Source: a virus
Lineage: Duplodnaviria > Caudoviricetes
DNA: 59,045 bases
Strand: one strand, 5' to 3'
IMG/VR virus record: IMGVR_UViG_3300034196_000113
Span: 1-59,045 of that record
This document shows, in pieces, positions 1 to 15,968 of this stretch. Numbering within the stretch: the first letter of the stretch is position 1; each line of letters starts with the position of its first letter. A program made the translations under genes and the position numbers. The notes beneath the pieces were generated by a model that searched no databases, was not told where the DNA came from, and saw nothing but the letters and a program-made list of their open reading frames with translations.

Positions 1-173
1 CGCCTTCGCCCAGGGGGACGCCGGACCCTCGCCCCTGACCCTCGCCCAGGGGGACGCTCGCCTTCGCCCAGGGGGACGCCGGACCCTCGCCCCTGACCCT
101 CGCCCAGGGGGACGCTCGCCTTCGCCCAGGGGGACGCCGGACCCTCGCCCCTGACCCTCGCCCTGGGGGACGC
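1..173. repeat. Three tandem copies of a 58-bp GC-rich unit
   Basis: cgccttcgcccagggggacgccggaccctcgcccctgaccctcgcccagggggacgct at 1-58 and 59-116, near-identical copy at 117-173. Confidence 0.95.
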
Positions 174-3876: not shown

Positions 3877-4972
3877 TGGTCTTTCCACCGGGGTTGCTAT
3901 TGAGCGGCGTGTCGAGCTGACCGATGTAGTTTTCGCAATTGCTGGATCGGAATAGCGTGGCGGGTCGCAGGTATTGCCGCATGGCGTCGTCCGATCCCCA
4001 TTCCGCCGTCTTGCGGTCGATGACCCGTAACAGTTCCGACTTACCGTAATCCAGGATGCGCGCTTTGGCTAGGGCGGCGCCAGCCGTCGCCTTGCCGGTG
4101 TTCGTGCGGCTGCGGAAGGCGGTTCCGGCTTTCGCGTTGAGGTAATCGTACACATCGTCCACATCGTGCATCGTCGGGCTACTGCCCGACAAATGTGGAG
4201 GTTGCGGTTGGTGTTCGGGGATCGGCGCGGGGGGGGACAGGGGGAGGTCTTTTTGTTTACCTTCTTTGTTTATGTCTAATGATCGCGCGCGCGAGGCAAG
4301 CGTGTCCGAGCAATCTTTGACCACTTCGGGGGCAAAATCGGGGGCGAAAGGGGCGGGGGGGGTGCAATGGGTTGCATCGGGGGAAGTCCGGGGGGTGCAA
4401 CCGGTTGCATCGGGGAATCCCCGGGGGGTGCAACCGGTTGCATCGGGGAATCCCCGGGGGTGCAACTGGTTGCATCGGGCAATCTCCCAGGTGGGTGGTG
4501 GATTGGATGGCTCAGGCGCCGCATTATTGTTCATAAGCACCGGCCCTATTCGGATCGTGGTCGCGTAATCATACACAGCCCAGCTACTCTTGGGTTCGGG
4601 AACGGATGAAGGAGGGGGATTGGACGGGCGTCGAGCGCTATCGCCCCGTGTTCTTTCACGTAGTTTCTTATCCGACAATCGGTCGGTCGCCGGGGCTATA
4701 TCCCCGACCGCAAGACGGTAAACCGGGGCCCTTCCAGGCGTGCGCTCCAACGTCAATAAACCCCCCGTTTCCAGGCTTAGAATGCAGTACCGGATGGCGC
4801 GCTTCGTCAGTCCGATGTCCCGCTCCAGCCGTTTCATATTCGGCACGGCAATGTGATCCCCGGTGTTGTCGTCACCCCGGCTCGCCTGTCTGGCGAGCGA
4901 CACGAGGATAAATTTCGCGCTTGGATTCGCAATCTCTTGGCCATAAGCCCAGTTCATCGCCGCATCGCTCAT
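3761..4972 (-). CDS. Phage replication initiator (O-like) with N-terminal HTH and conserved phage C-terminal domain
   Basis: MS..AMNWA...SAKFILVSLA N-terminus; YLN.KAG..FR...W..D..M.QYLRP.TLF C-terminus; internal iterons. Confidence 0.8.
   Translation of the reverse strand: MSDAAMNWAYGQEIANPSAKFILVSLARQASRGDDNTGDHIAVPNMKRLERDIGLTKRAIRYCILSLETGGLLTLERTPGRAPVYRLAVGDIAPATDRLSDKKLRERTRGDSARRPSNPPPSSVPEPKSSWAVYDYATTIRIGPVLMNNNAAPEPSNPPPTWEIARCNQLHPRGFPDATGCTPRGFPDATGCTPRTSPDATHCTPPAPFAPDFAPEVVKDCSDTLASRARSLDINKEGKQKDLPLSPPAPIPEHQPQPPHLSGSSPTMHDVDDVYDYLNAKAGTAFRSRTNTGKATAGAALAKARILDYGKSELLRVIDRKTAEWGSDDAMRQYLRPATLFRSSNCENYIGQLDTPLNSNPGGKTNGTAHTPDAFTLNEQRKEQHRLKFEHLKSLFPGGKLPF
4361..4479. repeat. 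Four palindromic iterons inside the O-like gene (putative lytic origin)
   Basis: ggtgcaaNNNgttgcatcggg at 4361, 4394, 4427 and 4459 (spacing 33/33/32). Confidence 0.8.
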
Positions 4973-6227: not shown

Positions 6228-6290
6228 GTGGACAAATCTCCTGTTCAAAGTGGACAAATCTCCTGTTCAAAGTGGACAAATCTCCTGTTC
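6228..6290 (+). repeat. Plasmid origin iterons, 3 x 22 bp
   Basis: gtggacaaatctcctgttc(aaa) at 6228, 6250 and 6272, preceded by a T-rich tract at ~6160-6210. Confidence 0.92.
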
Positions 6291-6316
6291 TATGTGACAT
6301 TATTTGAGCGTGTCCC

Positions 6317-6325
6317 TGTGGATAA
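6317..6325 (-). promoter_or_regulatory. DnaA box
   Basis: TGTGGATAA is the reverse complement of consensus TTATCCACA; lies between the iterons and rep. Confidence 0.8.
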
Positions 6326-6345
6326 CTTTTAGCCTGCGGATAACC

Positions 6346-7224
6346 ATGACTCCTGCCGATAGCTCGCTCGTCACTCAAGCAAACCAAGTTGTTGAATCGT
6401 CTTACAAATTGACGCTGGCCGAGAAGCGCCTAATCCTCGTCGTGTTGACGAAGATCGACAGCCACCCCGACAAGCCCGCGGCACGGCCGGAAACGCTGAT
6501 CGAGATCGACGCAAGCGAGGTATCGGCGCATTTGCACCTGCCGCAGAGCGAGGCATATTTGATGCTCAAGGAAGCCGCGGATCGTCTGGCCGAGCGCTGG
6601 ATCATTATCGACCGGCCCCACCCCAGGAAGCCGAAGATGAAGCAGACCAAGACCCGTTGGGTGTCGGCGATTTCCTACATACCGGACGAAGGCAAGGTGC
6701 TTCTGCGCTTAGCCGAGGACGTGCTTCCGTATCTCACGCATCTGGCCGGCGAGTTTGTCCGCTACAGCATCGACCAAGTCGCCGATATGTCGTCGGTTTA
6801 CGCGATCCGGTTCTATGAGTTGCTGTTGCAATGGCTGGGGGAAGGTCAACGCGACGTTCCGCTTGACTGGCTGCGGGAAAAATTCGCGCTTCCCGATTCC
6901 TATAGCAACATTCGCGACTTGAAGCGCCGGGTTGTCGATCCTGCCGTAGAGCAGATCAACCTACATAGCAACCTCGAGGTTTCCTACGTACAGCGCAAGC
7001 GCGGGCGAATCGTGCAGTCGTTTCTTTTCACGTTCGGTGTCAAACAAGAACCCAAGCCGGCGCCCGCCGCCAAGCGTTCTCCCCGCACCAACAAGAAGGC
7101 GGAAACAGAAGCCCGGATAACCGCCGCGGCCAAGCCCGGCGAAACCCGCGAGCAGGTAATAGATCGGCTGGAACAGCTCCGCAAGCTCAAGGACGCCGTG
7201 AACGCCCCGGCGCCTAAGCCTTGA
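6346..7224 (+). CDS. repB: Plasmid replication initiator, Rep_3/RepB family
   Basis: LVTQANQVVESSYKLTLAEKRLI, RWVSAI.Y, S.YAIRFYELL.QW, DLKRRVVDPAVEQIN motifs; adjacent iterons. Confidence 0.92.
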   Translation: MTPADSSLVTQANQVVESSYKLTLAEKRLILVVLTKIDSHPDKPAARPETLIEIDASEVSAHLHLPQSEAYLMLKEAADRLAERWIIIDRPHPRKPKMKQTKTRWVSAISYIPDEGKVLLRLAEDVLPYLTHLAGEFVRYSIDQVADMSSVYAIRFYELLLQWLGEGQRDVPLDWLREKFALPDSYSNIRDLKRRVVDPAVEQINLHSNLEVSYVQRKRGRIVQSFLFTFGVKQEPKPAPAAKRSPRTNKKAETEARITAAAKPGETREQVIDRLEQLRKLKDAVNAPAPKP

Positions 7225-7423
7225 CCAACTGCTCTGGCAAACACCCTTGCGCGGTTGTTTTGTCCCACCCGAGAACGCCCGTCTCCTGGTCGAAGCGGAC
7301 AAAAACATACACGGCGTTGTGGCTACTTACGGTCCCTTGCTCGCAGTCGGGGTGGTTTACGCTGTCGGCATGGTTCGGTACATAGATCACACGCTGCCCG
7401 TCTTCGACCTCTTCGATGTTCAT
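7214..7423 (-). CDS. Hypothetical SH3-like small protein
   Basis: 69 aa, GQRVIYVP...EQGTVSS...VFVRFD. Confidence 0.6.
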   Translation of the reverse strand: MNIEEVEDGQRVIYVPNHADSVNHPDCEQGTVSSHNAVYVFVRFDQETGVLGWDKTTAQGCLPEQLVKA

Positions 7424-7707
7424 CGCGTGTCGGTCTTCTTCCTAGGCCCCGGCAGAATCCCCGCGCCCGCCTGCCCGACCGTGCTCGGGGCAGGTTCCGC
7501 CCGGGGGATGTCGTCGAGGGCGAACAGGTTGCCCGGGGGGATCGCGTAGGGCACCCCGTCGACCTCTATGGTGTGGCGCCGACCGATCTTTTTGGACCCC
7601 AAGGCGACCACGGTGCCGATCTTGTCGTGAAGGTACGACGCTCGGTTGGTCGTGCGGCTTCCGTAGCGGATCCGCACGCGGGTTCCTATTTCCGGCCAGC
7701 TCAGCAT
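7420..7707 (-). CDS. Hypothetical protein
   Basis: Likely start MLSWPEIGTRVRI at 7707; overlaps both neighbours. Confidence 0.55.
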   Translation of the reverse strand: MLSWPEIGTRVRIRYGSRTTNRASYLHDKIGTVVALGSKKIGRRHTIEVDGVPYAIPPGNLFALDDIPRAEPAPSTVGQAGAGILPGPRKKTDTR

Positions 7708-8057
7708 ACCGAGACGATCCTTGGTGGAGGGGTGGGCACCACCACTTCGGCTCCCGGCCGCGGTTTCGGTTCCGGCCCGTAAACGGGAAGGGGCTTGCGC
7801 GCGGCATCCAGATGGGCGAACACCCGCTCGATCTTGAGAACGCCGGGGTCTTCGATCTCGCGCCGCTCCAGCTTGCGCAGCCACTCCAGCCCCACGTCGC
7901 TTTGCCGCCCGATCTGTGCCAGCACCGCGGATTTCGACCTCCCGTCGGCCAGCGCCGCGCGCACCGACTTATCGAGTAACTTGTACGTTCGGTGTAAGAG
8001 CGAGGACGCGGGGATCGGGGCGCGTTTTGTTGATGGCGATGCGTTCTTTCTTCTCAT
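7701..8057 (-). CDS. Cro/XRE-like HTH regulator
   Basis: LAQIGRQSDVGLEWLRKLERREIEDPGVLKIERV is an HTH; first gene of the leftward early operon. Confidence 0.7.
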   Translation of the reverse strand: MRRKNASPSTKRAPIPASSLLHRTYKLLDKSVRAALADGRSKSAVLAQIGRQSDVGLEWLRKLERREIEDPGVLKIERVFAHLDAARKPLPVYGPEPKPRPGAEVVVPTPPPRIVSVC

Positions 8058-8154
8058 AATGCGCAGAATCTCTAAGATATTTGGCCGCTGGCCAACGACT
8101 AGACTGTTATCCGGCTGCATTGTACCGGGGAAAAGATTCCCGGGCGAGGACACG

Positions 8155-8445
8155 AGCCGTATCGAGCGCGAGAACCGTCTAAGTAGTGCGACCAGCCGTT
8201 GAGTCGAGAGTACCGGGGTCGAAAGCGAAGCCGTGTGGAAAGAGGGAACCGGAGCGACTACGCGATAGCCGCAACGTCAACGAGAATCGAACTACCCGTG
8301 CGATAGTCGTGCAGTCGAAGAGTACCGGTCTGAAGACGCGACACTCAGCCGCTCCAGCGACGCGAATCGAGGGACAAGAGCGACAGCCGTCTTTCCAGTG
8401 AGGACCGGTTCGGATGCGCGACATCCCGAAAAGGATACGTGAAAA
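8155..8445 (+). ncRNA. TIGR-like dual-repeat guide array, block 1a (~7 units plus a partial unit)
   Basis: AGCCG-N9-YGAGAACCG-N9-YGCGA units, e.g. agccg tatcgagcg cgagaaccg tctaagtag tgcgacc. Confidence 0.85.
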
Positions 8446-8450
8446 TACTG

Positions 8451-8479
8451 TTGTCACGGTAATGTTTTGTTGGTAGGAT
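8451..8479 (+). promoter_or_regulatory. Sigma70-like promoter inside the array locus
   Basis: TTGTCA-17 bp-TAGGAT with extended -10 TG, followed by a leader hairpin. Confidence 0.65.
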
Positions 8480-8511
8480 TTTCCCGGTGGCAGGGATGCC
8501 GCTGGCCAATG

Positions 8512-8628
8512 AGCCGGGTAAAATGCGAGAACCGTTGGTAAAGCGCGACAAGTCGTGTTCGATACCAGAACCGAACCAGCGATGCGATAAGTCTTGCTCG
8601 TTGTGCGAATCGTAAACAATGCGCGAAA
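8512..8628 (+). ncRNA. TIGR-like array block 1b (3 units)
   Basis: Same dual-repeat units as block 1a. Confidence 0.85.
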
Positions 8629-8632
8629 GCTA

Positions 8633-8842
8633 ATGACGAACGACCCCGACGACAATCCCCCGTCTCCGAGTTATGACGACCCGGTATTCTTCACGCCAGG
8701 TTGCACGGTGCTGTATCAAGAAGTCGCCTGGGTGGTCCGCCGCGTCAATGTCGGAGCGGACGGGAAGGTCTACTCGCTGAACATCGACCGGCCTGGGGTG
8801 ACGACGTGCGTGGGGCCGAGTCATGTGATTAGGGTTGAGTGA
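8633..8842 (+). CDS. Small hypothetical protein embedded between array blocks
   Basis: 69-aa ATG ORF exactly filling the repeat-free gap; its TGA overlaps the next AGCCG. Confidence 0.65.
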   Translation: MTNDPDDNPPSPSYDDPVFFTPGCTVLYQEVAWVVRRVNVGADGKVYSLNIDRPGVTTCVGPSHVIRVE

Positions 8843-9845
8843 GCCGACATCAACACGGGAACCGTGCCGGATATGCGAAGCCTGGGGTAACGTGGGATCT
8901 GTGTCAACAGTGCGAAGTCGGGCAAAGGGCGAGAACCGTTTCGGAAGTGCGAAGCCGTTGTCAGAGTGTGGACCGCGCCATCTGCGCGAAGTCGGGCGAA
9001 TTGCGAGTACCGAATCAGAAGTGCAAGCCGCCATGTCAACGAGAACCGTGGAAGACAAGCGATCAGTCGAGTTGTGGGCGAGAACCGCGCGCGAAGTGCG
9101 ATAGCCGGGTTCCGCGTATGAAGCGCGCCCGAAATGCGATAGTCGAGAAATCCGCGAGAAACCGTGCGTTTAGTGCGATAGTCGAGAAGTCAGCGGGAAC
9201 CGTGCGGGGGTGCGATGAACGAGCCGAAAAGCCGGCGAGAACCTAAGACCAAATGCGAGTCGTGAAGCCGATGTGAATCGGTATAGTTGTGCGACAATCC
9301 GTAAATATAGCGAGAACCGCATCTTGAGTGAGAAGCCATGAAATTGGCGTGAACCGGAGAAGTTGTGCGATAGCCGCAAAGTATGCGAGAACCGGAAGGC
9401 CGACGCGATAGCCGGGCGGATGCGAGATACCGCAGTCGAGGTGCGAGAAGCCGTGAAGTAGGTCAGAACCGGAAAACGAACGCGATAGCCGTTCCGTCTG
9501 TGGGAACTGTACGTGCGGTGCGATAGCCGCGTAGATCGCTAGAACCGAAGCAAGCGCGCATTAGGTCAATAGCCGTATGAAATGTGAAAACCGGGCCGCG
9601 CGTGCGACGAGCCGACAGACTAGCAAGAACCGAAAACGATGCGCGATCAGCCGCTTGTCCAGCCTGAACCGTATGAAGAATGCGACCAGCCGCAATGCTG
9701 ACGAGAGCCGCGAACCCTGCGCGAGAAGCCGCTAAGAAAGAGTGAACCGTGCCGTCAATGCGATCAGTCGTAATTGACGTGAGAACCGTACAACCTGCGC
9801 GCGAAGCCGCAACATGAGTCTGAACCGTGACAATAAAGCGAGAGC
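8842..9845 (+). ncRNA. TIGR-like array block 2 (~26 units)
   Basis: Continuous ~38-39 nt period with two alternating repeats and unique 9-nt spacers. Confidence 0.9.
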
Positions 9846-9853
9846 AACAAACA

Positions 9854-11044
9854 ATGAATGAAGCAAGTGCGATACCGAGCGACGACAGCGAAAAAGACGG
9901 CAAGAAGTTCAAGAAGAAAGAACTCAAGGAGCAGTTGGCCAAGAAGGCAAAGGAGATCAAAGAGCAGACCAAGGAAATGCTGGAGCAGGAGAAGCCGCCC
10001 GAACAGTTGCAGCCGATGATCCGGCTGAACAAAGACGGGGTTGCCGCCCTGTTGGCCGGGCAATCCGGGGGGCCGATGCCGTCGGCGGGGGTTGCCGGGG
10101 CGTCGAATATCTCCGAGGCGCGCATCCTGGTCGATCTGTATTACGCGATGCAGGAGTACCGCAAGGGCTTCGACAATCAGGTGGGGGCCATCGAGCGGGG
10201 GGCCGATCAGGCGACCACGCACGTCAGCGCAGACTTCATCGGCACCCAAATCGACGTGCTGGAGAGCAACGCCAAGCTGTTCCTCGAGGTGTTCGCGTCC
10301 TCGCATCCCATGTGGGGCTGGTTTAAGGCCGTGCATGGGATCGGTCCCGTGCTCGCCGCCGGGCTCATTGCCCACTTCGGAAGCCGCGCCCTCCCGCCCA
10401 CGGTGGGCCATTGGTGGCGATTCGCAGGCCTCGATCCCAGCCAACGATGGTTGAAAGCCGATGCGCTGTCCGACCTGTGGAACGAGCAGGAAGGCGACAT
10501 CGACCAGCGGACCCGCAACGTCGCGGCCATTGTGGGCCGCTCGCCCGACACGGTGATTCGGGATGCGACCGTCGATTTTAAGACCGGGGAGACCAAGCCG
10601 CTGACCCGGGCGGGAGCGCTCAAATCGTTGGCGCGGATTCCGTTCAATCGGCCATTGAAGACCCTTTGTTGGAAGGTCGGAGATCAATTCGTGAAGCTGG
10701 GGGCCAGAGAGGACGCCTTTTATGCTCGGTATTACCGCAACCGCAAAGCCCAAGAGATCGCCCGCAATGAGGCCGGCGAGCGTGCCGCATTGGCTGCGAA
10801 GACCTTATCTGAAAAACCGAGCCATGCGCAACGGGCGACCTATGCGGACGGGCGCTTACCGGACGGGCGGGTAGACTTAATGGCGAGACGGGCGACCGTC
10901 AAGTTGTTTCTCTCTCATTTGCATGAAGTGTGGTGGAGGGTCGAGCATGACGGAGAAATGCCGCCGAAGCCATTCTCTGTAAGCATTCAGGGTCATGCAC
11001 ATTACATACCGCCACCACACTTGGATGCCGTAGGGCTGGAATAG
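9854..11044 (+). CDS. Nop/IS110-like RNA-binding protein without a nuclease domain (TasA-like)
   Basis: HGIGPVLAAGLIA...WWRFAGLDP...PFNRPLKTLCW...FYARYY...MARRATVKLFLSHL match the Transposase_20/Nop fold; no N-terminal DEDD RuvC motif; flanked by arrays. Confidence 0.85.
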   Translation: MNEASAIPSDDSEKDGKKFKKKELKEQLAKKAKEIKEQTKEMLEQEKPPEQLQPMIRLNKDGVAALLAGQSGGPMPSAGVAGASNISEARILVDLYYAMQEYRKGFDNQVGAIERGADQATTHVSADFIGTQIDVLESNAKLFLEVFASSHPMWGWFKAVHGIGPVLAAGLIAHFGSRALPPTVGHWWRFAGLDPSQRWLKADALSDLWNEQEGDIDQRTRNVAAIVGRSPDTVIRDATVDFKTGETKPLTRAGALKSLARIPFNRPLKTLCWKVGDQFVKLGAREDAFYARYYRNRKAQEIARNEAGERAALAAKTLSEKPSHAQRATYADGRLPDGRVDLMARRATVKLFLSHLHEVWWRVEHDGEMPPKPFSVSIQGHAHYIPPPHLDAVGLE

Positions 11045-11046
11045 AG

Positions 11047-12826
11047 AGTCGTACAGCGCGCGAGAATCGACGCCAGAGTGCGAGCCTGGCGAGAGGTCTG
11101 AACCGAATCGAACGCGCGACAAGTCGAGTAGTACGCGAGAACCGTATGCCAAGCGCGAGAAGCCTGGATTTTGGCGAGAACCGTACCAAGCACGCGATAG
11201 CCGTCTTGGAGGCGAGAACCTGACAAATAGTGCGATAAGTCGGGCCTTTTGTGGGAACCGTATAAACGGCGCGACCAGCCGCAGCTCCAACAAGAACCGT
11301 CCCGCCCGTGCGATAGCCGTGGGATCTATGTGAACCGGGCGAAAGGAGCGACAAGCCGAATTCCAGGCGTGAACCGAATGCGAAGCGCGACAAGTCGTGA
11401 ATACTGCGTGAGCCGTACAAGAGGCGCGACCAGTCGAAAACCAAACGTGAACCGAAACCGATACGCGATTAGCCGTATTGGCTGTGGGAATCTACACCGT
11501 GGCGCGATAGCCGGGCCTTTGGCGAGAACCGTATTCGCAACGCGAGAAGCCGCACAGTTCGCGTGAACCCCTTGTCTGGTGCGACAAGCCGTGAAGCTAG
11601 TGAGAACCGAACACTGAGTGCGAGAAGCCGTGAAGCGTGCGAGAACCGTCAATCTAACGCGAGAAGCCGTGAACCGTGAGTGAATCGTCACGCGAACGCG
11701 ATAAGTCGAGCAGGCGACGAGAACCGAGTAGCGGACGCGATAGCCGTGATAAAAGCGGAGAACCCGAACACCAAACGCGATAGCCGCGGACTCGGCGTGA
11801 ACCGAGCAGTTCGCGCGATGAATGATCCGGGATGAAGGCGAGTACCGTTGAGGTAGCGACCAGCCGTGAAAGCCAAGAGAACCGTCGCGGATATGCGAGA
11901 AGCCGCGAAGAAGACGTGAACCGAAAGCGTAGTGCGAGAAGCCGCGAAGAAGACGTGAACCTAAGGCGTAGTGCGATAAGCCTCACGTATACGAGAACCG
12001 TGGAGGCGTGCGATGAAAGAGCCGTGAATTACGTTAGAATCGTAGCCGTCGCGCGATGAGTCGAGAAAATAGCGAAAACCGTTTCTAGAGTGCGATGAGT
12101 CCAGAAAAGAGTGAGAAACCGCCGGAATAGTGCGATCCGCGCCAAACGCGAAAGCCGGGCCTAGTGTGAATAGCCCGTAGAGATATGAGAAACCGAGAGA
12201 ATTGAGCGAGTCTTGAGGGTACACGAAGCGAACTACGCGTGCGATAAGCCGGAAGTAAAGCCAGAACCGATTCTCGCGTGCGACCAGCCGTGGGAGTAAG
12301 TGTAACCGTCGGGCCGGCGCGACCAGCCGTTAATCAGGTGGGAACCGTCTATAAAGTGCGAGAAGCCGCGGATCGTGTTTGAACCGACTGGGCCATGCGA
12401 GAAGCCGCGCGGTTCGCGAGAACCGAAATGAAGGCGCGACAAGCCGACGAACTAACACGAACCGTTATCGGGGTGCGACCAGCCAATTGAACTGGCGAGA
12501 ACCGCGTGGGTGATGCGAGAAGCCGTGACAGGCATTTGAACCGTGTAGGTAATGCGACCAGCCGCCTAACTGGCGAGAACCGTAAGAAAAACGCGACCAG
12601 CCGTGTCTAATGAGTGAATCGTGCCGATGGTGCGAGAAGCCTTCAACCCAGTGTGAATCGGAAGAACTGTGCGACCAGCCGTCAGTTCAGCGAGAATCTG
12701 AGTTGGAGTGCGATAAGCCGGCAGACAGAGCGAACCGGAATAAGGAGCGAAGCCGTATGATCACGCGTGCCGACCCAAAGCGCGATCAGTCGAGATAGCC
12801 AAGAGAACCGGTGAAGTCGCGCGATG
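11047..12826 (+). ncRNA. TIGR-like array block 3 (~46 units)
   Basis: Starts 2 nt after the Tas stop codon; e.g. agccg tgaagctag tgagaaccg aacactgag tgcgaga agccg. Confidence 0.9.
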
Positions 12827-13126
12827 GAGTACCCTACTCTTTGCCGCAGGGATGCGGCACCACTCGGCGATCAGAGTTCTACGATGATAAAGCTCAAGAA
12901 ACTGAACAAAGAGAAGTGGGAAGCAATCGAATACCTCACGATTTGGCAGTTCGCTTGTATTGCCAACGACGTGGAGCCGCCGGAGTCGTTAGAGGAATTC
13001 CTGGACTCGTATGCCGGGTTCGTGCATATCGGGGTCTTGTTTATGATGCTCTCTATTGCAGAGAAAGCCGGTCAATTCGAGATTATAAAAAACCCCGACG
13101 AGCCGGATAAGAAGGTTGTTCACTGA
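12824..13126 (+). CDS. Hypothetical protein
   Basis: 100-aa ORF whose ATG lies within the last edge repeat (gcgATG); an internal start (MIKLKK) is possible. Confidence 0.6.
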   Translation: MEYPTLCRRDAAPLGDQSSTMIKLKKLNKEKWEAIEYLTIWQFACIANDVEPPESLEEFLDSYAGFVHIGVLFMMLSIAEKAGQFEIIKNPDEPDKKVVH

Positions 13127-13141
13127 GCGGGCGATACCGGA

Positions 13142-14092
13142 ATGAGCCAAGACTTGATCGTTGTGCAGAAAGGCGACCCGTGGGAGCCCCCGGCGATCAT
13201 CTACGATCTGCCGGCCGAGCAGTATTTCGGCATCGAAGCGGCCAGCTCGCATTTGTTGTCCGCGATGGTGCGGCAATCCCCGCTGCACGCGAAGACCGAG
13301 AAGCCGCCGACCAAGGCCAAAGACCTGGGGTCGCTGGCCCACCTGATGATCCTGGAGCCCGACCGGGCGGCGACGGACGTGCAGGTTAAGCCGCGCAATG
13401 CCGACCGTGCGAGCAATGCCGGGAAGCGGGCGCTGGTGGGGTGGATGCTGGAGATATTGAAATGTCCCGAGCCGGCGACGACCCCGGGGCTTGCGCCGGG
13501 CAAGGCGCTGGACGAAATGCTCGCGGTGCTGGAGCCCATGCTTGCAACGTCCGATGCGTTCGTGGCGACCCAGCAAACATTCGAGACGGCGCAGCGGATG
13601 CGCGATTCGGTATTTGCCAAGGCGATTGGGCGGGCTATCTTTGAAGACGGGAAAGCGGAAGTGACGATGCTCGCCAAAGATCCGGAGACCGGCGTGCTGT
13701 GCCGGATCAGGGCGGATTGGATGCCCGATGGCCACTGGTTGATGGTGGATCTGAAATCGGCGGCGAGCGTGTGTTACGACGAGTTTGCCAAGGCGGCGGG
13801 GAAATATAACTACCATATCCAAGCCGCGTTTTATCGGCATGTGGAAGCGCTGGTCAGCGGCGTCTTGAAGAAAAAATTCCTGCATGTGGTGGTAGAAAAC
13901 GTCGAGCCGTTCGACTGTGCATTCTACGAGCTGGACGAGGTTGCTCTGGATCACGGGACGCGGCGCTACGAACAGGGACTCGATTTATATGCCCGCTGTA
14001 TGTTGGCGGGATATTTCCCGGGGGTGCAATGGGATTGGGGGGTCAACGATTACCGGATCGAGTCGCTGCAATTGCCCAAGTGGGCGCTGTAG
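13142..14092 (+). CDS. RecE/ExoVIII-like PD-(D/E)XK exonuclease (DUF3799-like)
   Basis: GSLAHLMILEP, CRIRADW...VDLKS, Y.YHIQAAFY. Confidence 0.85.
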   Translation: MSQDLIVVQKGDPWEPPAIIYDLPAEQYFGIEAASSHLLSAMVRQSPLHAKTEKPPTKAKDLGSLAHLMILEPDRAATDVQVKPRNADRASNAGKRALVGWMLEILKCPEPATTPGLAPGKALDEMLAVLEPMLATSDAFVATQQTFETAQRMRDSVFAKAIGRAIFEDGKAEVTMLAKDPETGVLCRIRADWMPDGHWLMVDLKSAASVCYDEFAKAAGKYNYHIQAAFYRHVEALVSGVLKKKFLHVVVENVEPFDCAFYELDEVALDHGTRRYEQGLDLYARCMLAGYFPGVQWDWGVNDYRIESLQLPKWAL

Positions 14093-14134
14093 CGCGCCGG
14101 GACCATTCTTCACTTTGCGAGAGCACCCAAGCCC

Positions 14135-15418
14135 ATGCCCAACGAAATGGCAACGATTCAGTCGTCGAACGAAATGACGCTGGTCTCCCGGCCGCAACCC
14201 GTCAACATTTTCGGTACACCGGAGAATTTCGCCTTTGCCGCCCGGATGGCCAAAGCCTTCACCAGTTCGGCCTTGGTGCCTAAGCACTACCGGGGCGAGG
14301 AAAACCTGGGGAGCGTCCTGATCGCAATCGACCTGGCGAACCGGCTGGACGTGTCCCCGCTCATGGTCATGCAAAATATGTCCCCTATCGAGGGCAAGCC
14401 GGCCTGGAGTTCCAAGTTCCTGATCGCGGCCGTGAACGCGAGCGGGCGCTTTACCCCGTTGCGGTTCAAATTCGAGCGGGACGAGAAGCCGCACGACGTG
14501 GAGTGGACCGACTACGTGTGGGGCGACGGGAAGCGCCCGACGCCCACGAAGAAGGTGGCGAAGGACATTTTGAACCGACGGTGCCGCGCCTACGCGACGG
14601 ATCTGCGCACCGGCCTGGAGTTGGAAGGGCCGGAAGTCTCCATCGTCATGGCCATCCAAGAGCGATGGTATTTCCGCAATGGGTCCAAATGGCCCACGAT
14701 GGGCGAGCTGATGCTGAGCTACCGGGCCGCGAGCCTTTGGACCGGCATCTTCGCGCCCGAGCAGACGATGGGGTTGCCCACGGCAGACGATGCGGCCGAC
14801 GCGATCGATGTCACGCCCGAGCGGGTGATGGAGACGAAGGAACCGGAAGTGGCCAGCGGATTGGACTCGCTGTCGGCGCGGGCCCGCGAACTGCGCGAGA
14901 AGGAGACGGACGCAGGGCCCACCGAGCCCGAGCCCACCCCCGCGCCCAAGGAAGCCAAGAAAGCGCCCGAGGACGATGCCGATGCGGATGTGTCGGGCGA
15001 ATGGCCCCGCGCCGCGCCCAATGGCGTGCTCTACGACGCCCGCGGCGTAACGCATATCCCCGGCTGTCACTCGGGCGGAAAGACCTGTAACCGGGACGGG
15101 TCTTGGCGGCTGCGTAAGGGAGTGGCCGAAGTGGCGGCGAACGCGATGGAAGCCCGCTACCCGAGAGTCGACCCGAAGAGCCTCGAGGCCCCTCCCCCGC
15201 CGGATGACGAACCCGGCGAGGCGTTCGCGGCGCCAACAAAAGGCGGGGACAATGACGGCCCCAGTTACGACGACGCCCTAGAGTGGATCGCGTCGGCCGA
15301 TACCACCGAAGAAGTCGACGGGGGTCTGGACGCGGCGCGCGATCTGGATCTTAGCGAGGGACAGCGGGCGGATCTCGTGGAGTATGCCGAGAAGCGCCGG
15401 GCGGAATTGATGAGGTAG
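14135..15418 (+). CDS. RecT/Beta-like ssDNA annealing protein with a long acidic C-terminus
   Basis: AKAFTSSALVPKHYRG...IAIDLANRLDVSPLMVMQN...GKPAWSSKFLIA; ML.YRAA; adjacent to the exonuclease. Confidence 0.75.
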   Translation: MPNEMATIQSSNEMTLVSRPQPVNIFGTPENFAFAARMAKAFTSSALVPKHYRGEENLGSVLIAIDLANRLDVSPLMVMQNMSPIEGKPAWSSKFLIAAVNASGRFTPLRFKFERDEKPHDVEWTDYVWGDGKRPTPTKKVAKDILNRRCRAYATDLRTGLELEGPEVSIVMAIQERWYFRNGSKWPTMGELMLSYRAASLWTGIFAPEQTMGLPTADDAADAIDVTPERVMETKEPEVASGLDSLSARARELREKETDAGPTEPEPTPAPKEAKKAPEDDADADVSGEWPRAAPNGVLYDARGVTHIPGCHSGGKTCNRDGSWRLRKGVAEVAANAMEARYPRVDPKSLEAPPPPDDEPGEAFAAPTKGGDNDGPSYDDALEWIASADTTEEVDGGLDAARDLDLSEGQRADLVEYAEKRRAELMR

Positions 15419-15420
15419 GA

Positions 15421-15537
15421 AGTCGTCGCGGTTGCGAGAACCGAGACTTGCGTGCGAGAAGCCTTGCGAGAAGCGAGAACCGCTAACGACGTGCGACAAG
15501 CCGTCCGAAAGACAAGAACCGTCCCGCGAGTGCGATG
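15421..15537 (+). ncRNA. TIGR-like array block 4 (3 units)
   Basis: agtcg tcgcggttg cgagaaccg agacttgcg tgcgaga..., starting 2 nt after the RecT-like stop codon. Confidence 0.85.
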
Positions 15538-15543
15538 CTAACC

Positions 15544-15574
15544 GGGTGGGCCGCAGGGCCCACCCTCCCCTTTT
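15544..15574 (+). terminator. Putative intrinsic terminator closing the array operon
   Basis: gggtgggcc-gcag-ggcccaccc hairpin followed by tcccctttt, between convergent operons. Confidence 0.6.
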
Positions 15575-15968
15575 AGTAATGCGCCGCCGGAGGAACCGGG
15601 CCCGGGTCTTCGGTGCCGGGCAGCAACTCCGGGTCGGGCTGGGGCTCGCCTTCTCCACCTTCCCCACCTTCCCCGGGCAGCGAATGGGCCGAGACGGCTT
15701 CCGCAAGCACCTGAGTTTGCGCGTCGAGCGCATCGCGTAGGGCCGTGAGTGCGGCCGGATCGTTCTCGGCAATCGCTTCGTCGAGCTTGTCGCGGATGCC
15801 GGTGATGAGGGTAACCGCCGAGTCGATGGCGCCGCGATTTTCTTCCACTTCCGCGCGCAGACTGTCGAGTAGCTGGGACATAGTATGTGTTCGCTCCAAG
15901 AGAATATCGAGTTGGGCCGTCATTGTAGAGTCCGGTTGGACGAAGACCCGCACTTCTACGAGAGGCAT
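15573..15968 (-). CDS. Hypothetical coiled-coil phage protein
   Basis: LRAEVEENRGAIDSAVTLITGI helical ORF; start may be at 15881. Confidence 0.65.
   Translation of the reverse strand: MPLVEVRVFVQPDSTMTAQLDILLERTHTMSQLLDSLRAEVEENRGAIDSAVTLITGIRDKLDEAIAENDPAALTALRDALDAQTQVLAEAVSAHSLPGEGGEGGEGEPQPDPELLPGTEDPGPVPPAAHY

Follow-up and report, generated by a model that had tools for sequence, protein, structure and literature searches.

A very large dual-repeat TIGR-TasA locus, built of guide RNA arrays around the gene of a nuclease-less Tas protein, lies in the IMG/VR virus record IMGVR_UViG_3300034196_000113 (59,045 bases; completeness estimate, 74%), which we call the window, and a RecE/ExoVIII-like exonuclease gene followed by a RecT-like annealase gene is nested between its arrays. 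We consider it probable that this pair is an ordinary phage recombination module, co-resident with the TasA cassette in an early DNA-metabolism operon. Co-residence is preferred because only a minority of tas loci show the linkage, the partner genes are not orthologous between loci, the other recurrent neighbors of tas are generic, the nearest RecT and RecE relatives occur without tas, and TasA can act alone. TIGR-Tas systems and RecET modules are each known; new here are the 39-nucleotide (nt) units, the exceptionally large array complement, and the recombination genes nested between arrays.

Organization of the locus

The elements of the locus follow one another on the + strand in the order array 1, orf82, array 2, tas, array 3, orf100, recE, recT, array 4, and terminator:

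8150-8625 (+): TIGR array 1, degenerate units with a period of 36-42 nt
8594-8842 (+): orf82, 82-amino-acid open reading frame (ORF) between arrays 1 and 2, no family match
8842-9850 (+): TIGR array 2, closing half edge GCGA at 9838-9841
9827-11044 (+): tas, nuclease-less TasA-type Nop-domain protein (phrog_4285, 5e-31)
11045-12824 (+): TIGR array 3, ~45 units of 39 nt, half edges at 11045-11051 and 12821-12824
12824-13126 (+): orf100, 100-amino-acid ORF of no recognizable family, start uncertain (alternative ATG at 12884)
13142-14092 (+): recE, RecE/ExoVIII-like PD-(D/E)XK exonuclease, 316 amino acids (DUF3799, phrog_412, PDB 3h4r)
14135-15418 (+): recT-like gene, predicted single-strand annealing protein, 427 amino acids (phrog_561)
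15419-15535 (+): TIGR array 4, three intact 39-nt units, half edges GAAGTCG at 15419-15425 and GCGA at 15532-15535
15544-15552/15557-15565 (+): intrinsic-terminator-like hairpin, 9-bp GC stem and loop GCAG, followed by UCCCCUUUU to 15574

Each unit consists of an 11-nt edge repeat (GCGAnnAGYCG), a 10-nt spacer A, an 8-nt loop repeat (GAGAACCG), and a 10-nt spacer B, the alternation of two short repeats with two short spacers that defines dual-repeat TIGR arrays. The units are confined to the + strand, in four blocks between ~8150 and 15535. Sixty-five of them pass strict criteria (8, 20, 34, and 3 in arrays 1 to 4, respectively), and the block lengths give an estimate of roughly 90 over the four arrays. 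By comparison, the accessible text of a recent preprint (Xu 2026, 10.64898/2026.09.09.750476) counts 65,635 tigRNAs in 4,126 dual-repeat arrays, a mean of ~16 per array. The unit itself departs from the 36-nt form, with a 39-nt period in arrays 3 and 4 that is shared by locus L004 of the survey described below; in array 4 the loop repeats begin at 15436, 15475, and 15514, spaced exactly 39 nt apart. Dual-repeat guides are described as "uniform 36-nt" in the same preprint, and the original description, in the parts accessible, allows exceptions, with spacers of up to 12 nt (Faure 2025, PMC12045711).

The junctions between arrays and genes are tight. After the tas stop codon (TAG, 11042-11044) come AG and then the AGTCG that opens array 3 at 11047; after the recT stop codon (TAG, 15416-15418) come GA and then AGTCG from 15421, so that the gap is 2 nt in both cases. 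At the end of array 3 stands the half edge GCGA (12821-12824), and its final A doubles as the A of the orf100 ATG. An earlier reading of this DNA from its sequence alone (the sequence-only reading) had described a small ORF after array 3, arrays bracketing the recombination pair, a three-unit array beginning 2 nt past the annealase stop codon with the same gap as after tas, and a terminator hairpin after the last array, and all of these elements are present. The hairpin folds with -30.3 kcal/mol (z, -2.7) and sits ~10 nt past array 4, between the operon and a convergent ORF (15573-15968, - strand); a simple terminator scan did not call it, as only 4 U fall within its 8-base window.

Arrays with 5'- and 3'-truncated edge repeats at their ends and a terminator after the last array are the published rule for TIGR loci (Faure 2025, PMC12045711, in its accessible parts), and the window follows it on both counts. 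Array 4 can thus be read as the ordinary 3' end of a TIGR locus, and since every array obeys the half-edge rule and only array 4 has a terminator, recET would lie inside the TIGR-Tas transcription unit. Near-identical copies of the window are present in contigs of three peat-metagenome runs. Contigs from two other peat runs match positions 12556-12939, 12783-12933, and 15339-15732 (the last being the contig of run X2) with 0 differences, and the array/gene junctions are therefore not an artifact of a single assembly.

The sequence-only reading had also proposed that the genes are co-transcribed, which the sequence makes plausible. Gaps on the + strand are 0-42 nt (15 nt between orf100 and recE and 42 nt between recE and recT), a pattern scan of the + strand from 11045 to 15540 found no terminator-like site, and the unit holds 4 promoter-like sites against a shuffle expectation of 3.0, which is no excess. 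Over the unit as a whole the scan flagged a single + strand terminator, a weak hairpin of 5 bp that lies in tas (10887-10900). Because of these short gaps and the lack of both internal terminator calls and promoter excess, a single 7.4-kb transcript is the simplest reading. A 150-amino-acid ORF without a family match (7701-8153, - strand) diverges from the start of array 1; by its position it could encode a regulator of the TIGR-recET operon, and no convincing promoter was called between it and array 1.

The exonuclease and the annealase

The sequence-only reading had named an ExoVIII-like exonuclease and a RecT-like annealase, and profile searches upheld both identities. The predicted recE product places itself in the RecE/exonuclease VIII family above the curated threshold, with 79.2 bits to Pfam DUF3799 (PF12684; cutoff, 26; E, 5e-22), and also matches phrog_412 "exonuclease VIII" (2.7e-61) and PDB entry 3h4r, the C-terminal domain of Escherichia coli RecE (7.2e-16).

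The annealase is more divergent. Its residues 23-282 show profile-level homology to RecT-like phage proteins, matching phrog_561 "RecT-like ssDNA annealing protein" (3.7e-51) and phrog_4171 (1e-10). No match to the Pfam RecT family (PF03837) was obtained, nor to any Pfam family even at an E value of 10, and the PDB gave no match by sequence or by profile. PF03837 is matched by 4 of the 22 annealase homologs; of the two of these traced to a locus, the protein of L002 passes (79.5 bits) and that of L236 falls below the cutoff (21.2 versus 24). The L002 annealase thus stands above the Pfam RecT cutoff and is also in phrog_561 (3.5e-81). Comparison by hhalign of the annealase family profile (A2) with a Pfam-positive RecT profile (A5) gave a probability of 3% and an E value of 0.014. 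We therefore call the window protein RecT-like, as a divergent member, from its PHROG match and from the position of its gene directly 3' of the partner exonuclease gene on the same strand.

A 145-amino-acid acidic extension with a Cys/His-containing stretch forms the C terminus of the annealase (residues 285-427; phrog_29341, 2e-5). It is common to the window protein and the otherwise different RecT of locus L004 and is absent from L002 and from the 80 nearest RecT relatives. The extreme C terminus weakly resembles the tails of other annealase clusters in the ESM Atlas (TM, 0.33-0.36), which we take as a lead only. A search of the same atlas with orf100 returned no named family.

The Tas protein

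The longest tas ORF opens at a GTG (9827) within the final unit of array 2, and an ATG at 9854 lies 12 nt past the half edge GCGA. This ATG is likely the true start, giving a protein of 396 amino acids, in agreement with the 396 amino acids of the database protein P0001. We found 854 Tas homologs, and the family profile (A1) matches PDB chain 9mty_A (1.2e-17) and chains named TasH (7e-7); 9mty_A, named by its depositors as an IS110-type C-terminal domain protein, is presumably the published TasR. For the window Tas, Pfam gave nothing above threshold, and neither Pfam nor PHROGs revealed an HNH or RuvC domain, so that this Nop-domain protein adjoining its arrays is of the TasA type. The C-terminal loop GHAHYIPPP, in which GH.HYI.PP is invariant or nearly so, falls within the region matching solved Tas chains, and residues 1-95 form a Lys/Glu-rich stretch outside the conserved core. 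According to the accessible text of the preprint, the H/Y dyad of Tas cuts inside edge repeats, and reporter assays show TasA repressing transcription with no partner present (Xu 2026, 10.64898/2026.09.09.750476).

The homolog P0046, from an Endozoicomonas genome and 39% identical to the window's Tas, is named "IS110 family transposase" in NCBI/UniRef, and PHROG 4285 carries the label "transposase"; Tas proteins are probably widely misannotated as transposases.

Neighbors of tas in other loci

A survey of Tas neighborhoods for DUF3799 and RecT had been proposed by the sequence-only reading. We carried it out on 160 Tas-homolog loci, many of them with short flanks, which came in equal parts from viral and metagenome contigs (80 each). 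Of these, 143 have a callable tas ORF and collapse to 93 groups besides the window, 66 of which have 3 kb or more of flanking DNA on one or both sides; 34 further Tas loci came from genome contigs. A single-sequence search for Tas relatives in viral contigs and in a GenBank phage collection had found none, and alignment-based scans did find them. RecT-like and ExoVIII-like genes were counted with hidden Markov models (HMMs) built from gene clusters and run on all six-frame ORFs.

Such a gene lies near tas in 14 of the 160 loci (L002, L004, L031, L032, L041, L051, L054, L061, L064, L070, L076, L077, L101, and L117), which represent ~10 lineages, mostly on the same strand. The linkage is therefore recurrent, and it is a minority feature, the other 146 loci having no such gene in the DNA examined. 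Only one of the 34 genome loci gave an HMM match, and it is the same provirus as L061. When 50 tas-bearing viral records were searched over their whole length, phrog_561 was found in 1, phrog_148 in 6, and phrog_412 in 5. Gene order varies among the loci in which a complete exonuclease/annealase pair adjoins tas:

Window: array-tas-array-orf-exo-recT-array
L004: array-tas-array-orf-exo-2 ORFs-recT
L076/L077 group: tas-array-exo-recT
L064: exo-recT-array-orf-array-tas-array
L101: exo-recT-array-tas
L002: array-tas-orf-exo-recT-SSB
L041: recT-exo-exo-SSB-tas

In L064 and L101 the array begins at the recT stop codon, as in the window, and in L076 the ATG of the exonuclease gene directly adjoins an edge repeat. 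Arrays generally adjoin whichever gene comes next, be it tas, recT, or the exonuclease gene, and the 2-nt junction thus characterizes the arrays rather than recT.

The exonuclease and annealase families are not orthologous between Tas loci. The window combines phrog_412 with phrog_561, L002 phrog_434 with phrog_561, and L004 phrog_412 with phrog_148; L004 further has an 82-amino-acid ORF at the position of orf100, with no detectable similarity to it. BLAST clustering of the ORFs around tas gave methyltransferase, RecT-like, helicase, DNA polymerase, ExoVIII, HNH, and SSB as its largest groups, and thymidylate synthase is also recurrent. A Pfam census was taken of 277 ORFs that share the strand of tas and lie no more than 3.5 kb from it in 74 dereplicated loci; it gave RecT 5, DUF3799 4, PDDEXK_1 4, YqaJ 3, and Sak 2 among recombination families and Helicase_C 6, methylases 6, and DNA_pol_A 3 among the others. 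Since the remaining recurrent neighbors are generic DNA-metabolism genes, Tas cassettes appear to live in the early DNA-metabolism module.

The reverse survey started from 80 viral loci with the nearest RecT relatives (35-45% identity) and one RecE locus. When Tas proteins of the dereplicated groups served as tblastn queries (E, 1e-5), tas was found in none of the 81, and none contained a true TIGR array. Segments with a 36-nt period in the RecT loci L164 and L227 were coding repeats, not arrays.

ORFs other than tas stand between two TIGR sub-arrays in three phages: the window (8594-8842; 82 amino acids), L064 (9312-9554; 80 amino acids), and L003 (8329-9201; a kinase-like ORF with an 89-amino-acid ORF). 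Punctuation of cargo genes by arrays may be a general habit. L003 also has two tas paralogs, at 6937-8082 and 10013-11095, both of the phrog_4285 type, with array periods of 40 and 36 nt, and a convergent gene for a 2027-amino-acid DarB-like antirestriction protein comes after its tas region.

A recombination module as probable cargo of the TIGR-TasA locus

In the explanation that we favor, recE and recT would be a standard two-component module of a 5'-3' exonuclease and an annealase, with a small ORF in front, carried as cargo within the transcription unit of the TIGR-TasA locus of a peat phage or phage-plasmid. One early promoter 5' of ~8150 would transcribe all 7.4 kb. Tas, with its C-terminal H/Y loop, would dice the arrays into 39-nt tigRNAs, and because coding cargo sits between arrays that obey the published rule, guide processing should also cut the operon mRNA into gene-sized pieces. 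One of the mRNAs so released would be orf100-recE-recT, with the cut near 12824 falling at or beside the orf100 start codon. RecET, co-expressed with the guides, would do its usual work in recombination and recombination-dependent replication of the phage; it would not serve the arrays, nor would Tas need it. The adjacency would arise because TIGR-tas cassettes of this Tas subfamily habitually occupy the phage DNA-metabolism/recombination module.

Phage recombination modules provide a model for such an arrangement. As in Rac RecE/RecT and the lambda Red exo/bet genes of the early-left operon, an exonuclease gene is followed in the window by an adjacent annealase gene on one strand, and in those phages, as here, the position in the operon is conserved while the alleles are non-homologous from phage to phage. 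Lambdoid-style positional conservation with allele replacement would, by analogy, explain the recurrent exonuclease/annealase genes next to tas. The window differs from the Rac and lambda modules in that its annealase has diverged beyond the reach of Pfam RecT and bears the C-terminal extension, no Gam-like gene was recognized, and guide RNA arrays flank the module. The sequence-only reading had itself named "ordinary pL-operon synteny" as the outcome that would refute its proposals, and the evidence fits such synteny better than a dedicated partnership.

Several observations weigh against co-residence as the whole explanation. Recombination genes taken together are, by raw count, the commonest identifiable same-strand neighbor of tas in our sample. 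In five lineages (window, L004, L076/L077, L064, and L101), an array stands next to the recombination module, separated from it by a small ORF at most. The exonuclease and RecT genes are directly 3' of tas in two of the three closest Tas relatives with long flanks (L002 and L004), and by filtered tblastx the phages with the three closest Tas proteins share almost nothing but tas with the window; beyond tas, the comparison gave a weak recE match and one further gene common to the window and record G003. In the 50 tas-bearing records, no member of the RecT and ExoVIII families is farther than 10 kb from tas, with the exception of the one in G037, which lies at the opposite end of a linear contig. 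Finally, transcription and processing of the operon are inferences.

Alternative explanations

Some of these observations speak for a functional partnership. In one version of it, TasA with its tigRNA would stall replication or open the DNA at the guided site, where RecE and RecT would resect and anneal, resulting in RNA-guided recombination or in interference with competing elements by a nuclease acting in trans. Tas proteins that are only 33-63% identical to that of the window, on unrelated phage backbones, show the operonic association again, with arrays abutting the module, and RecT and DUF3799 were the top Pfam families of same-strand neighbors in the first half of the census. There is also a precedent, in the accessible text of Faure 2025 (PMC12045711), in the tasParB-tasA operons, where a ParB-like protein is the operonic partner of TasA and arrays sometimes lie between the genes, although that partner is a ParB-like CTPase and the one in the window an exonuclease/annealase pair.

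On the other side, most Tas loci show no such gene, the exonuclease and annealase partners change from locus to locus, and the nearest RecT relatives never occur with tas. RecE requires DNA ends, and TasA makes none. No C-terminal feature is common to all tas-linked RecTs, the extension of the window and L004 proteins being missing in L002. We therefore hold a functional partnership to be improbable. Equally doubtful, in our judgment, is the broader proposal that the exonuclease/annealase pair is a second recurrent co-transcribed partner of TasA after the ParB-like one, with arrays punctuating the operon, Tas processing freeing the recET message, and Tas-tigRNA marking sites for RecE and RecT, which would make the locus a natural system of RNA-guided recombination or nuclease-in-trans interference. 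The suggestion of the sequence-only reading that the nuclease-free Tas recruits recombination to RNA-specified sites found nothing to point to it; most Tas loci lack these genes, the families are not orthologous, and the reverse survey was empty. The 65 spacer pairs, searched in both orders with gaps of 0-2 nt, had no target in the window outside the arrays at ≤2 mismatches, and the 2 matches at 3 mismatches compare with ~1.4 expected; against 283 loci (3.4 Mb) there was none at ≤1 mismatch and 2 at 2 mismatches, about the chance level.

A different origin for the adjacency would be a secondary rearrangement, in which a recET cassette was inserted or recombined into a once-continuous array, leaving three units and the terminator behind it. 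The cassette spans exactly the interval from GCGA (12821-12824) to GAAGTCG (15419-15425), which if joined would form one complete edge repeat. Only the window has arrays on both sides of the pair, L004 and L076 having none past recT, and L064 and L101 show the permuted order recE-recT-array-tas. The half-edge geometry, however, also flanks tas and is a general rule of array ends, so it is no proof of insertion; the composition profile shows no island or break around the cassette, and we found no relative that carries these spacers in one unbroken array. Such an insertion, which seems to us a slim prospect, would be compatible with an ordinary co-resident module as the historical route to it.

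The arrays themselves contain one tandem pair of near-identical units (11895-11972), with spacer A identical and one mismatch in spacer B, which directly indicates that duplication can lengthen arrays. Similar spacers are in modest excess, and positional base bias can yield such an excess. The arrays gave no clear instance of one spacer A joined to another spacer B, and no array differences were seen among the contigs of the three peat runs that hold the phage.

The sequence-only reading had stated that no acquisition machinery is established for such arrays, and the accessible parts of the literature say the same, no adaptation genes being known for TIGR (Faure 2025, PMC12045711; Xu 2026 preprint). 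It had further proposed that the exonuclease and annealase drive spacer acquisition or shuffling. RecT/Red-type annealing needs far longer homology than the conserved stretches of a unit, which are just 11 and 8 nt. Although the gap in known machinery, the duplicated unit, and the unusual length of the window's arrays (~90 units against the preprint mean of ~16) might speak for RecET as a maintenance or acquisition machinery that inserts, duplicates, and shuffles spacer pairs through annealing of these short repeats, we saw no sign that RecET works on the arrays and regard the idea as highly improbable: most TIGR loci, long ones included, lack RecET, spacers show no clear reassortment, the arrays are identical in three samples, and replication slippage yields a single adjacent duplication.

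Setting of the locus in the window

The element resembles a phage-plasmid, as a Rep3-family plasmid initiator (Rep3_N, 6e-31; Rep3_C, 2e-19) and tail-like genes share one record. In the interval 6228-7224, the initiator gene is immediately preceded by three exact, iteron-like direct repeats of 22 nt (6228-6290). Other repeats are a 58-nt tandem repeat at the start of the window (1-173; 3 copies, 99% matches) and a 33-nt repeat at 4357-4497 (4.2 copies) with the palindrome TGCAACCGGTTGCA inside. No Rfam family was found over 7800-15800 at an E value of 0.1 or better, and a tRNA gene search found none.

Relation to known TIGR-Tas systems

The locus is like the dual-repeat TIGR-TasA systems described in the accessible parts of Faure 2025 (PMC12045711) and the Xu 2026 preprint in its alternating repeats, two spacers, and nuclease-less Nop-domain Tas, as well as in its arrays on both sides of tas, truncated end repeats, final terminator, and phage-borne setting. 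It differs in its 39-nt units with 10-nt spacers, as against the 36-nt guides, in the number of its units, spread over four arrays, and in the placement of orf82 and of orf100-recE-recT between arrays. In the literature searched, we found no statement linking TIGR to RecE, RecT, or annealases, although the supplementary neighbor tables of Faure 2025 may list such genes. The origin of TIGR arrays and the natural role of nuclease-less TasA are stated as open questions in the accessible text of both sources.

Recombination modules are among the commonest neighbors of this Tas subfamily. If the linkage were functional, it would point toward natural RNA-guided recombination. If it is not, which we think more likely, TIGR-tas lives in an early DNA-metabolism operon and a nearby RecET is not an adaptation module, a distinction that would be relevant to annotators and tool builders alike.

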